Assembly (NCBI GenBank): GCA_026126105.1
Contig: JAHCJV010000005.1
Coordinates: forward strand, 46,418-110,417
Length of the DNA stretch: 64,000 nt
Direction of reading: 5' to 3'
Origin: Enhydrobacter sp.
Lineage (GTDB): Bacteria; Pseudomonadota; Alphaproteobacteria; Reyranellales; Reyranellaceae
The notes beneath the pieces were generated by a model. The model was not told where the DNA came from, did no database searches, and was given only the letters and a program-made list of their open reading frames with translations. This document shows, piece after piece, positions 30,326-33,890 of this stretch; positions within the stretch are counted from its first letter, which is position 1, and every line of letters begins with the position of its first letter. Both the position numbers and the translations under genes were made by a program.

Positions 30326-31306
30326 TCAGTTGGCCGGCGATACGCGGAACTGATAGGGCTCCTCGAGCGTCTTCGCGTCCTCCGTGGTGATTGTGAACTC
30401 GGTGGCCTTGGCGGCCGAGCTCAGCTGATCGAGGTCGGTGGCGCCGATGATCGGCGCGGCCATGTAAGGCTTGCTCAGCAGCCAGGCGAGCGCCGCCTGT
30501 GCCGGCGTGCAGTTCTTGCCGAGCGCGATCTTCTTGAGCCGATCGACGATCTCCCAGTCGCAATCGCGATAGGTGCCCGCCTGGACATTCGTGTCGTTCT
30601 GGGCACGCTCGGTGGCGCCGCCGCCTTCCTTGCTGCGGTTTCCGGCGAGGAAGCCGCGCGCCAGCGGCGAGTACGGGATGAGGCCGACGCCCTGCTCCTC
30701 GCACAACCGGTTCATCTCGCGCTCTTCCTCGCGCTGGATCATGTTGTACAGGTTCTGCATCGCAATCGGCCGGGAGTAACCCTTCCCGTCTGCGATCATG
30801 ATCATCTGCGCGAACTTGTAGGCCGGCATGGTCGAGCCGCCGATGTAGCGGACTTTGCCCGACCGTACGAGCTGATCGAGCGAGTACATCATCTCTTCGA
30901 TCGGCGTATACGGATCGAGGCGATGCACCTGATAGACGTCGATATAGTCCGTCTGAAGGCGCTTGAGCTGCTCGTCGACGGCAGCCATCAGATGCTTGCG
31001 GCCGGTGCCCTGGTCGTTCTGCGCCGCGCTCATGCGGATGCCGACCTTGGTCGACAGCACGATCTCCTCGCGCTTCACCATCTTCATGAGCGTGGCTCCC
31101 ATGATCTCCTCCGAGCGCCCCGCGTTGTAGGCGTCCGCCGTGTCGAAGAAGGTGATGCCGACATCGAGCGCGCGCCTGAAATAGGCGGGCGCCTCGGCCT
31201 CGTCGAACTTGCCCCAGCCGCGTCGGCCCTTGGCGCCCCACGAATTGCCGCCGAGGCAGATCCGGCTGACGATCAGGCCGGAGCGGCCGAGAGGTCCGTA
31301 CTTCAT
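30326..31306 (-). CDS. Aldo/keto reductase
   Basis: FFDTADAY, LSTKV, YIDVYQVHRLD, GKVRYIG, PYSPLARG. Confidence 0.95.
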   Translation of the reverse strand: MKYGPLGRSGLIVSRICLGGNSWGAKGRRGWGKFDEAEAPAYFRRALDVGITFFDTADAYNAGRSEEIMGATLMKMVKREEIVLSTKVGIRMSAAQNDQGTGRKHLMAAVDEQLKRLQTDYIDVYQVHRLDPYTPIEEMMYSLDQLVRSGKVRYIGGSTMPAYKFAQMIMIADGKGYSRPIAMQNLYNMIQREEEREMNRLCEEQGVGLIPYSPLARGFLAGNRSKEGGGATERAQNDTNVQAGTYRDCDWEIVDRLKKIALGKNCTPAQAALAWLLSKPYMAAPIIGATDLDQLSSAAKATEFTITTEDAKTLEEPYQFRVSPAN

Positions 31307-31353
31307 CTCAAACTCCCCTTGCTGGCGGCAGCTTAAGTTCCCACCTTGAGGGC

Positions 31354-31572
31354 ATGAAAGTCCTGATCGAATATTGCGGCGCCTGAGGCTACAAGCCGCA
31401 AGCCCTCCGTGTGAGGGAACGCCTTGAGAAGATGGGTGCGACCGACTTCGAGTTGCGCCCCGGTAGATCCGGCCAGTTCGACGTCACCGTCGACGGCGCC
31501 CTCAAATACACCCGCAGCAAGACCGGCCGCTTCCCGACCGATGCCGAGATCGACGATCTCATGCCCGATTGA
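31354..31572 (+). CDS. SelW/SelT/SelH (Rdx-family) selenoprotein; UGA at 31384-31386 read as Sec
   Basis: MKVLIEYCGA(UGA)GYKPQALRVRERLEKMGATDFELRPGRSGQFDVTVDGALKYTRSKTGRFPTDAEIDDLMPD; CxxU motif, GxFxV, GRFP; RBS GAGGG; SECIS-like hairpin. Confidence 0.85.
31399..31426 (+). promoter_or_regulatory. Putative bacterial SECIS element
   Basis: CCCTC-CGTGT-GAGGG hairpin (31403-31417), loop begins 21 nt after the UGA and contains GU; outer CAAG/CTTG pairing. Confidence 0.6.
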
Positions 31573-31575
31573 ACG

Positions 31576-32562
31576 TCAGGCGTAGATTTCTTTGTTCACG
31601 CAGTGGGCCACGATCGGCTTGCCGTCGAAAACCGACAGGATGTTCTCCATAACGGCGATCGCCATGCGATCGTTGGCTTCCTTGGTGACACCGGCCATGT
31701 GCGGACTGAAGATCACGTTCTCCAGCGCGAACAGTTTGTGCTTCGCGTCGGGGGGCTCGCGCTCGAGCACGTCCAGGCCTGCGCCGCGCAACCTGCCGCT
31801 GGTCAACGCGTTGTAAAGCGCCTCCTCATTCACGATGCCGCCACGCGCGGTGTTCACCAGAAACGCGCCGGTCTTCATCAGCCCGATCGTTTCGGCATTG
31901 AACATGTCGACCGTCTCCGGCGACTTCGGACAATGCACCGATACGAAATCGACCTTGGGCAGGATCGCCTTGAGGTCGGTCACCTTGGTGGCGCCGGCCG
32001 CCTTGATGTCGGCCTCGGAGATGTTCGGGTCGAGCACATAGGTGTCCATCTCGAATGCCACGCAGCGCTTGACCGTGCGCGAGCCGATGCGCCCCATCCC
32101 GACGACCAGGATCGACTTGCCGGCAAGGTCGGCGGGCTGGTCCGAAAGGCGCTCGTGCCAGGCATTCTCGCGCACGAAGCGGTCCATCTTGCGGGTGAGA
32201 CGCGCCGAGGCCAGGAGCATGTACATGGCGTGCTCGGCGACCGACACCGAATTGGCGATGCCCGTGGTCATGAGCGGGATCCTGCGCTTGCTGAGCGCCG
32301 GCACCTCGACCTGGTCGAAGCCGACGCCGAGACGCGCCACCACTTCCATGACCGGCGAGACATCGAGTTCGGCCTGCTTATAGGGCGTGCCGCCCAAGGT
32401 GACCGCATTGGCGTCCTTGAGCTTGGAATGGTACGAGGAAGCCACTTCAGCTAGCGGCAGAATTTCGAAATCGACATCGTCGCGCTTCTTGAGGACGTCC
32501 ATTCCCGCCTGCGGCATCCAGCCGACGATCAGCACTTTCTTGCGATTCTTGCCCGTGGTCAT
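31576..32562 (-). CDS. D-2-hydroxyacid/phosphoglycerate dehydrogenase-like protein
   Basis: RLGVGFD, SVAEHA, GMGRIG, VNTARGGIVNE, DVLEREP, SPHMAG. Confidence 0.92.
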   Translation of the reverse strand: MTTGKNRKKVLIVGWMPQAGMDVLKKRDDVDFEILPLAEVASSYHSKLKDANAVTLGGTPYKQAELDVSPVMEVVARLGVGFDQVEVPALSKRRIPLMTTGIANSVSVAEHAMYMLLASARLTRKMDRFVRENAWHERLSDQPADLAGKSILVVGMGRIGSRTVKRCVAFEMDTYVLDPNISEADIKAAGATKVTDLKAILPKVDFVSVHCPKSPETVDMFNAETIGLMKTGAFLVNTARGGIVNEEALYNALTSGRLRGAGLDVLEREPPDAKHKLFALENVIFSPHMAGVTKEANDRMAIAVMENILSVFDGKPIVAHCVNKEIYA

Positions 32563-32639: not shown

Positions 32640-33890
32640 ATGCAATTCCGCGACGCAATCGAGAAGGATGCCGAGGACCTGCGCACGCTGGCCGATTGGG
32701 CGGTGGCGGCCTCTGGATATCGTGAATTCGTGCCTCGTCCCATCGTGAGCGGTAACGATTGGCGAACCCAGGAATGGCAGCTTGATGCCGCCGCGATGAC
32801 GCTGCGTCGCACCTGGTTGGGTGTGGCGCATCGGTCGGGCGATTCAACGCTGAAAAGCCCGCGCGCCGGGCACATCGCCCATGTCGCCTGCGGCTCCCGC
32901 GTGACCTTCGGCTACGAGCGCGACATCGACGCCTCCCTGCTCGAGCAGCGCATGGGATACCTGCGCGTGCCGGCCGGCTGCTCGTCGGACCTCGTGCTGT
33001 TCCGCAGCGGACAGGCAGCCCTCGCCTGCCTCGTCCACTTCGCCGTCTCGCAGTGGGGGAAAGCCGATCCCCTCACCGTCGCGCATGCCGGCGCCTATTT
33101 CGAGACGGCAGCGCTGCTCTCGTCCTGGCCTGAGCGTCTGGTCAGGCAACTCGACGACGCTGGAGAGGCGGACATCGTCATCGCCGAACCGGTGTGGTGC
33201 GATGGACAGTTCGGATGCGGGCAGCGCCTGCCTAAGGCCCGCCGCGCGCTGATCCTGGATATCACCATGTCCGGACCGGCATACGATCTTGCGCCATACC
33301 TCGATGACTGCCCGTTGGTGATCGCCTACAGCTCCGGACTGAAGCTCGACCAAGCGGGCCTCGAGCTCGCCAATGCCGGCATCGTCCGCGTGCTGGCGCG
33401 CGAAGGCACGCAGGAGGTGGGAGCGGCGTTGCGCAAGCTGCGCGGGCTGACCGGGGGCGGCCTCACGCTCGACGAGCTGTCGGCCCTCTCCGCGCCGTGG
33501 TTCATGGATCGCGCTTATGCCGAGCGCTACACCGCGGCGATCTTCGCCAACAATCGCGCGCTCGCCGCGGCGATCGGCTCACAGTCCGCCGTCTTCGGCG
33601 CGCGCTGCCATCCGTCGCTCCTCGATCCCGCGGCAGAGGCTCCGTTCTGCGCGCTGACGCTCAACGAGCCCTCGGCCGAAGGATATCGGGCGCTCGAAGC
33701 GAAGATCGCCAGGGAGTGCGCGCGTCGGGGACTGCTCGCCGTCAAAGGCGGTTCGTTCGGCTTTCGCGGCCACCGCTTCGAGCTGATCGAGCCGGAAGGC
33801 GGTCGGTCCTTCCTGCGCGTGGCAATGGGCTGGCGCGACGGCTGGAGCCGGCAAGGCCTATGCGAGCTGTTTGCCGAGCTCGCCGCCTGA
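32640..33890 (+). CDS. Hypothetical protein; divergent fold-type I PLP-dependent enzyme (Cys/Met-metabolism-like)
   Basis: YER..FRSGQAAL..YFET..IAEP..ILDIT..YSSGLKL mirrors the YxR / FxSGMAA / Y / E / DxT / SxxK order of cystathionine gamma-lyase-type enzymes. Confidence 0.55.
   Translation: MQFRDAIEKDAEDLRTLADWAVAASGYREFVPRPIVSGNDWRTQEWQLDAAAMTLRRTWLGVAHRSGDSTLKSPRAGHIAHVACGSRVTFGYERDIDASLLEQRMGYLRVPAGCSSDLVLFRSGQAALACLVHFAVSQWGKADPLTVAHAGAYFETAALLSSWPERLVRQLDDAGEADIVIAEPVWCDGQFGCGQRLPKARRALILDITMSGPAYDLAPYLDDCPLVIAYSSGLKLDQAGLELANAGIVRVLAREGTQEVGAALRKLRGLTGGGLTLDELSALSAPWFMDRAYAERYTAAIFANNRALAAAIGSQSAVFGARCHPSLLDPAAEAPFCALTLNEPSAEGYRALEAKIARECARRGLLAVKGGSFGFRGHRFELIEPEGGRSFLRVAMGWRDGWSRQGLCELFAELAA

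Follow-up and report, generated by a model that had tools for sequence, protein, structure and literature searches.

Does the apparent gap between an aldo/keto reductase gene and a 2-hydroxyacid dehydrogenase gene in a 64,000-nucleotide stretch of Enhydrobacter sp. DNA (contig JAHCJV010000005.1; the whole stretch is referred to here as the window) hold a selenoprotein gene that open reading frame (ORF) callers fail to report in full? A sequence-only reading had proposed that it does, in the form of a hidden SelW/Rdx-type gene in which an in-frame TGA would specify selenocysteine (Sec, U) within a CxxU redox motif. Our analysis supports this proposal through a match to the Rdx profile, the retention of the TGA in every related genome compared, and a coding signature on both sides of it. 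It is highly likely that positions 31354-31572 encode a 72-residue SelW-like selenoprotein of a Reyranella-like alphaproteobacterium, decoded and expressed in the manner proposed below, and we are nearly certain that the gene itself exists and is kept throughout the Reyranella group. The features on which this reading is based are as follows.

31354-31572, forward strand: SelW-like (Rdx family) selenoprotein gene of 72 codons including Sec-11, identified from its translation, Pfam PF10262, TIGR02174 and 80 orthologues
31375-31386, forward strand: redox motif Cys8-Gly-Ala-Sec11 (TGC GGC GCC TGA), with Cys codon 8 at 31375-31377 and both codons kept in 81/81 sequences
31384-31386, forward strand: in-frame UGA, the inferred Sec codon, present as TGA in 80/80 related genomes
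31411-31572, forward strand: 53-amino-acid ORF starting at GTG, taken from the ORF list and reported by gene callers instead of the full gene

An in-frame UGA within a conserved coding sequence

The SelW-like gene starts at an ATG at 31354, begins MKVLIEYCGA-UGA-GYKPQ and ends LMPD. Its translation reads MKVLIEYCGA-stop-GYKPQALRVRERLEKMGATDFELRPGRSGQFDVTVDGALKYTRSKTGRFPTDAEIDDLMPD-stop, in which the internal stop is codon 11 and the terminal stop is the TGA at 31570-31572; 61 codons lie beyond the UGA and include the motifs GQFDVTVDG and TGRFP. The start codon, the TGA at codon 11, the 61 further codons, the terminal stop and both motifs are all present as the sequence-only reading had described them. 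It had also stated that ORF callers miss or truncate such genes, and here only the 53-residue piece starting at GTG is called.

For comparison we used one genome per species, which gave 80 loci, nearly all from Reyranella, Enhydrobacter or Reyranellaceae; counts out of 81 refer to the window plus these 80 loci. Codon 11 is TGA in 80/80 species-level genomes, where it follows M-K-V-L-I-E-Y/F-C-G-A, and with the window included both Cys8 (TGC) and codon 11 (TGA) are identical in 81/81. Around the UGA, 11 of the 15 nearest codons (2-10 and 12-16) show synonymous third-position variation, for example K2 (AAA/AAG), V3 (GTC/GTG/GTA), Y7 (TAT/TAC), A10 (GCT/GCC), G12 (GGC/GGT), Y13 (TAC/TAT) and Q16 (CAG/CAA). 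Amino acid changes are rare there, affecting at most 8/81 sequences at any flanking codon. The predominance of synonymous variation in the codons before the UGA, and in those from there to the downstream GTG, is thus a signature of translation. As more proxy genes in the window end in TGA than in any other stop codon (25/42), UGA is not reassigned in this organism. The same TGA was found without differences in DNA contigs (runs X1 and X2) and in metatranscriptome contigs (X25 and X29). The finding of TGC or TGT at this position in close relatives would have counted against Sec; instead, all 80 genomes have TGA, and Sec utilization is documented for the genus.

Of the 437 homologues returned by a protein search, nearly all have 51-53 amino acids and are cut at the same place. 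Three full-length database proteins have a sense codon at position 11, namely GGA (P0001, Gly), TGG (P0002, Trp) and TGT (Cys). Their sources, loci L083, L084 and L085, are single metagenome contigs of less than 1.3 kb each; the contig with TGT, the only TGT found among close relatives, has 1.4x coverage. Each of these codons departs from TGA by its own single-base change. This is what errors or rare variants would produce, not a Cys-containing clade, and such changes surface in protein databases because each creates a callable ORF. These contigs also illustrate how errors or rare variants can mimic Cys, Gly and Trp homologues of selenoproteins. An interpretation of P0001 and P0002 as TGA read under alternative genetic codes was dropped, as the DNA has true GGA and TGG codons.

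Family membership and predicted fold

For profile searches, U was changed to C in the window protein. With the UGA read through in this way, Pfam Rdx (PF10262) matched residues 2-69 with E = 1.4e-15 and 57.7 bits (cutoff 22.6), the profile check that the sequence-only reading had suggested. NCBIfam TIGR02174 (CXXU_selWTH) scored 46.2 bits against a curated cutoff of 34.2. The lowest NCBIfam E-value (8.5e-20) was obtained over the full length with NF041051 (SelTWH_Campy), yet the score of 70.8 bits is below the curated cutoff of 88, which places the window protein outside the Campylobacter equivalog. By these sequence comparisons, the window protein is a member of the Rdx/SelW-like family.

In a sequence search of the Protein Data Bank (PDB), the top match was mouse SelW (2npb, E = 9e-7), with an alignment through G-A-C-G-Y-K-P, followed by MIEN1 and then by bacterial Rdx proteins from structural genomics. 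The CGAU of the window aligns with the CxxC of the SelW construct 2npb, of MIEN1 (2ljk) and of Atu0228 (2fa8), so that the CxxC of the PDB Rdx proteins and of the SelW construct puts Cys opposite the window UGA. Native mouse SelW has CGAUGYKP in this region, so the redox centre and the next four residues are identical to those of the window protein.

Structure prediction was carried out on P0003, a natural Cys homologue that is 79% identical to the window protein. The AlphaFold2 model of P0003 (mean predicted local distance difference test score, pLDDT, 94.9) consists of b1 (residues 2-8), a1 (14-26), b2, b3, b4 and a2, with the CxxC placed between b1 and a1. A Foldseek search with this model identified 2fa8, 3dex, 2ojl, 2obk and 2p0g with template modelling (TM) scores of 0.82-0.90, and MIEN1, SelW and thioredoxins rank next. 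By analogy, the window gene would encode a small thioredoxin-like protein of b1-a1-b2-b3-b4-a2 topology with its active site, Cys8-Gly-Ala-Sec11, at the b1/a1 junction. Such a protein may act as a thiol-dependent oxidoreductase cycling between the selenol/thiol and selenenylsulfide states.

Some family members differ in length. Locus L027, which is Reyranella massiliensis 521 and carries the SelW-like gene with TGA, and locus L042 (codons 27-31 in both), together with L058 and L067, have a 5-residue in-frame insertion after helix a1; in L027 it is a duplicated LEKLG, and in two others it is KGTEL. The a1-b2 loop thus tolerates length change, and the hairpin region described below is constant. 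In a further database protein, P0054 (115 amino acids), the last 50 residues of the SelW-like protein follow an N-terminal part that resembles flavodoxin; P0054 probably stems from a chimeric metagenome contig or from a wrong gene call.

A hairpin conserved at the nucleotide level

31403-31417, forward strand: candidate selenocysteine insertion sequence (SECIS) hairpin H1, CCCUC / loop CGUGU / GAGGG, invariant in 81/81 sequences except at loop nucleotide 3

A bacterial SECIS element is a stem-loop that directly follows the UGA and has a G in its small apical loop (PMC1088965). In the window, the hairpin noted in the sequence-only reading, CCCTC-CGTGT-GAGGG, is indeed present: CCCTC occupies 31403-31407, the loop CGTGT 31408-31412 and GAGGG 31413-31417. 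The stem begins 16 nt, and the loop 21 nt, after the UGA. H1 is part of the minimum free energy (MFE) fold of the window sequence, and all five of its pairs form in 78/78 distinct sequences. The GTG from which the 53-residue ORF is called sits within H1.

Codon usage in this segment points to a constraint other than that on the protein. Codons 17-21 are GCC CTC CGT/CGG GTG AGG in 81/81, and the sole variable base is the third loop nucleotide (U or G). Among the 31 conserved codons of at least four-fold degeneracy, exactly four show zero synonymous change, namely 17, 18, 20 and 21, which form the stem arms of H1; the chance that a random draw of the four lowest from 31 would fall entirely inside these five consecutive codons is about 5/31465. 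The codons themselves are atypical. Arg21 is AGG in 81/81, though AGG makes up 6% of the Arg codons of the window and occurs in 1/71 at another Arg position of the gene; Arg19 is CGT or CGG and never CGC, the codon used for 62% of the Arg residues of the window; Val20 is GTG, while the other Val codons of the SelW-like gene are GTC; and Leu18 is the non-preferred CTC in 81/81. The most divergent members, L079 and L080, retain H1 intact. H1 is also unchanged in the six or seven loci that have a different upstream neighbour and 5' region, and it thus belongs with the gene and its UGA and not with an intergenic promoter region.

This pattern indicates a constraint at the RNA level and fits the SECIS-like role first suggested for the hairpin. 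We consider it probable that H1 is the SelB-binding element, with H2 (described below) a less likely candidate and a small chance left for some other element. In the proposed mechanism, this minimal element inside the ORF, encoded by residues Ala17-Arg21 of helix a1, would recruit SelB-GTP carrying Sec-tRNA(Sec) to decode UGA-11. An extension of H1 by a further pair between positions 16.3 and 22.3 was rejected, as it forms in only 47/81 sequences.

Competing folds

31402-31437, forward strand: competing fold H2, the RNAalifold consensus and the MFE fold in most homologues

H2 shares the GAGGG arm with H1 and pairs it with the CCUC of codon 24. Its inner stem joins UGAGG (31412-31416) to CCUUG (31422-31426; most relatives have CCUC plus G or C), and its outer stem joins GCC (31402-31404) to GGU (31435-31437; GGC in most relatives). 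H2 may be an artefact of the folding model or a real alternative conformer.

It is conceivable that the gene is as we read it and that the functional SECIS is H2, or that H1 and H2 alternate. H2 is both the RNAalifold consensus and the MFE fold of most homologues, 92% of its cells pair, the C/U changes at 23.3, 24.3 and 28.3 preserve G-C or G-U pairs, and its G-A-N-N-G loop, about 30 nt after the UGA, likewise contains G. We nevertheless regard this account as unlikely and favour H1 for three reasons. H2 cannot explain the frozen segment 31405-31411, which it leaves unpaired and which is invariant bar one position, including Leu18 CTC in 81/81 and the lack of CGC at Arg19. The C/U changes in H2 are one-sided, ordinary synonymous transitions opposite G and carry little information. 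Finally, L079 and L080 disrupt H2 while preserving H1; in addition, the H2 pair 41-55 is broken in 36/78 sequences.

A third predicted hairpin spans 31375-31400 (UGCGGCGCC-UGA-GGC...GCCGCA), places the UGA in a triloop and is conserved without covariation. We rejected this UGA-enclosing hairpin (UGCGGC...GCCGCA) as a functional element because it can be explained by Cys, Gly and Pro codons together with codon usage, and because the ribosome would unfold it.

A more elaborate model, which we consider improbable, is that decoding of the UGA is gated by mutually exclusive formation of H1, as the SECIS, and the more stable H2 on a leaderless mRNA. If this were true, a regulated change of RNA conformation, responding for example to the supply of SelB or Sec-tRNA, would decide between Sec insertion and termination in place of a constitutive SECIS. 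Such a switch would add a new level of regulation to a bacterial selenoprotein, conserved in the 74 sampled Reyranellaceae-like genomes with the reductase arrangement.

Gene neighbourhood, promoter and expression

30326-31306, reverse strand: aldo/keto reductase, the divergent neighbour (Pfam PF00248, E = 1.1e-72)
31576-32562, reverse strand: D-isomer-specific 2-hydroxyacid dehydrogenase, the convergent neighbour (Pfam PF02826 and PF00389)
31318-31347, forward strand: promoter-like elements conserved in relatives, CTTG at 31318-31321 and CCCACCTT at 31340-31347 (-14 to -7)

The SelW-like ORF occupies the gap between the start of the reductase gene (31306, reverse strand) and the stop of the dehydrogenase gene (31576, reverse strand), which had been noted as an apparent gap of about this size and measures 269 nt. 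Between the start codons of the reductase and the SelW-like gene lie 47 nt, and the stop codon of the dehydrogenase is 3 nt away from that of the SelW-like gene. The reductase is adjacent and divergent in 74/81 loci, and the dehydrogenase adjacent and convergent in 67/81. This kept order of reductase, SelW-like gene and dehydrogenase hints at a functional link, for example in carbonyl or redox detoxification. Farther downstream, 32640-33890 on the forward strand is a 416-residue ORF that has no Pfam match at E <= 1e-5. The window DNA is 86% identical to a Reyranella chromosome (L001, NZ_OZ257242.1) across 18 kb and, judged on this similarity, comes from a Reyranella-like organism of a species that differs from every representative fetched.

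Upstream sequences were compared among the 74 relatives with the divergent reductase; the other seven loci have a different upstream neighbour. Relative to the ATG, TTG is present at -35 to -33 in 72/74 loci, and CCAYCTT at -13 to -7, with A-11 in 72/74, T-8 in 74/74 and T-7 in 71/74. The spacer between the two hexamer positions is 17 nt. The distance from the TTG element to the reductase start codon varies between 9 and 14 nt. The ribosome-binding site GAGGG that the sequence-only reading had assigned to the gene did not withstand the comparison: it stands only 1 nt before the ATG and shows no conservation, and positions -6 to -1 are effectively random in the 74 relatives, which have no Shine-Dalgarno (SD) sequence. 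In the seven loci with another upstream neighbour, the same start codon (GTG in L077) is preceded by purine-rich SD-like sequences such as AAAGGAG, GGGAGG and AAGGAAG. A CCCCTTG run in the spacer is the reverse complement of the SD sequence of the reductase (AAGGGG), so the SelW-like gene and the reductase share overlapping signals.

The gene is apparently monocistronic, and its promoter is probably located in the 47-nt spacer shared with the divergent reductase. Placing the transcription start (+1) at the A of the ATG yields canonical -35/-10 geometry, and the mRNA would then be leaderless. This is the most economical reading of the upstream region, and we hold the chances for and against a leaderless mRNA to be about even. 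The SD-like sequences in the seven loci with another upstream neighbour agree with it, as do the extent and depth of the metatranscriptome contigs given below. Consensus sequences for sigma-32, EcfG and RpoE, compared by eye, did not fit.

Transcription of the gene was observed in environmental RNA. Metatranscriptome contigs span 31368-31574, including the UGA and the stretch 5' of the 53-residue ORF, and none reaches past the ATG upstream. In the soil RNA run X27, word depth is about 164 on the SelW-like gene and 5.6 on its neighbour.

Selenocysteine utilization in the lineage

In Peng et al. 2016 (PMC5029168), orthologues of SelD, SelA and SelB define the Sec trait, and Reyranella massiliensis 521 is listed among the Sec users. 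Its 10 known selenoproteins are the highest number among the alphaproteobacteria listed, most of which have one. The sequence-only reading had considered a SelW with Sec to be unusual in an alphaproteobacterium. This holds for most alphaproteobacteria, which mostly have one known selenoprotein, but not for this lineage, in which the gene is universal and R. massiliensis has 10. Literature searches directed at selenoproteins of Reyranella or Enhydrobacter yielded nothing specific. The window and about 1.3 Mb of loci were also scanned for further selenoprotein genes, on the basis of G+C content at third codon positions (GC3) and CxxU/UxxC motifs. All hits proved false: they were two neighbouring genes of L055 that share a frame, and a dehydrogenase gene read in an antisense frame.

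Counter-evidence and alternative readings

A number of results weigh against the reading proposed here. A tblastn search of the window and the 80 loci (about 1.3 Mb of flanks) for the SelA, SelB and SelD proteins of Escherichia coli gave no match, so that sel genes are unlinked to the SelW-like gene, and a tRNA scan of the 64-kb window found no tRNA-Sec. With respect to H1, covariation was sought by RNAalifold and by pair counting and none was found, in a region that hardly varies; the fold of a 76-nt segment of the window is no better than that of shuffled sequence (z = -0.72); and an Rfam scan of the window matched no family. When 66 nt from the UGA were folded, H1 was in the MFE structure of only 15/81 homologues. 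Forcing it costs a median of 2.6 kcal/mol, the competing H2 is preferred in 66/81, and a stem of 5 bp is short for a SECIS element. The weight that we give to H1 thus comes from its invariance across relatives and not from the fold of a single sequence. The predicted protein fold is that of the P0003 model and not of the window protein. A strict sigma-70 scan found no promoter because the hexamers are too degenerate. Contig ends and depth are weak evidence for the transcription start or the level of expression.

Three rival accounts concern the UGA itself. The real product might be the 53-residue protein starting at GTG 31411, the upstream ATG...TGA being non-coding or a 10-codon leader peptide. 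Gene callers report this ORF, and the databases contain hundreds of entries of 51-53 amino acids. We hold it to be extremely improbable, given that in codons 1-10 and 12-19 the encoded residues are conserved and most variation falls at third positions, that the shorter product would have neither strand b1 nor any part of the CxxU centre, and that the GTG lies within the invariant hairpin and has no SD sequence. In the seven loci with another upstream neighbour, moreover, the SD-like sequence precedes the upstream start codon, and the alignment to the Rdx profile begins at residue 2. Nonsense mutation, pseudogene decay and sequencing error have a negligible chance of accounting for the TGA: its presence in 80/80 independent genomes and in independent DNA and RNA runs excludes all three. 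The metagenome contigs with GGA, TGG and TGT do indicate that sense variants can exist, but they are single short contigs with three different one-base changes, one of them at 1.4x.

Finally, decoding of the UGA could do without selenium, through suppression or the near-cognate insertion of Trp or Cys, in which case CCCTC-N5-GAGGG would serve as an operator in the DNA or as an RNA signal other than a SECIS. Sec machinery was not seen for this genome in the scan of the window and of the flanking loci of relatives, a palindrome could in principle bind a dimeric regulator, and no covariation proves an RNA helix. What makes this account very unlikely, in our view, is that U falls at exactly the same position as in a known Sec/Cys redox family, that the genus is documented as Sec-utilizing and selenoprotein-rich, and that the palindrome stays constant where the upstream neighbour and the promoter region differ, and hence accompanies the UGA, whichever intergenic region lies upstream. 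A SelW-like selenoprotein with H1 as its candidate SECIS element remains the reading we prefer.

Relation to known selenoproteins and significance

The gene belongs to a long-known bacterial selenoprotein family whose members are routinely truncated by gene callers. Bacterial SelW-like CxxU selenoproteins were described by Kryukov & Gladyshev 2004 and Zhang et al. 2005, 2006 and 2008. With 48 sequences, SelW-like proteins were the largest family in the Sargasso Sea set, and with 427 Sec against 56 Cys forms the most abundant family in the Global Ocean Sampling (GOS) survey; the family is noted for its few Cys homologues. In the view of 2006, alphaproteobacteria had only FdhA as a selenoprotein. 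The window protein shares with the bacterial SelW-like selenoproteins (PF10262, formerly PF05169; TIGR02174) the family, the CxxU motif in which Sec takes the second redox position, and the rarity of Cys forms; its in-frame UGA, like theirs, precedes a small predicted hairpin whose loop includes G. It differs from them in its host: SelW-like selenoproteins have been described mostly from marine metagenomes, Deltaproteobacteria, Clostridia and Epsilonproteobacteria, whereas the gene reported here is found in Reyranellaceae from soil and freshwater. Its hairpin is very short (5 bp and a 5-nt loop) and frozen in sequence, and its mRNA may be leaderless.

Mouse SelW (2npb) has the same G-A-U-G-Y-K-P redox surroundings and the same fold as is predicted for the window protein. 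In eukaryotic SelW the SECIS is in the 3' UTR, whereas the candidate element here is inside the ORF; the window protein has 72 residues compared with 88 aligned residues of PDB chain 2npb, and the Foldseek TM score, obtained with the P0003 model, is only 0.67. The closest folds are the Cys-containing Rdx structures (Atu0228 2fa8, SAV_2001 3dex, 2obk, 2ojl, 2oka and 2p0g), in which the redox motif has the same placement but is CxxC instead of CxxU; they are 21-30% identical to the window protein and about 30 residues longer. The Campylobacter SelT/SelW/SelH family NF041051 matches over the full length, with the window protein below its cutoff.

The main value of these results is for annotation. 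In this clade, the public entries are 53-residue fragments without the catalytic CxxU centre, named 'Rdx family protein' at NCBI and 'predicted Rdx family selenoprotein' at JGI, and inventories of the Reyranella/Enhydrobacter selenoproteome and of redox proteins consequently miss the gene. Reyranella and Enhydrobacter are common in soil, freshwater and engineered-water metagenomes. The frozen 15-nt hairpin is a compact natural SECIS candidate for the study of SelB recognition outside E. coli. The host lineage consists of aerobic alphaproteobacteria that are unusually rich in selenoproteins for their class, and the retention of the presumed Sec codon in 80/80 sampled species, with no credible Cys form, indicates strong selection for selenium at this site.

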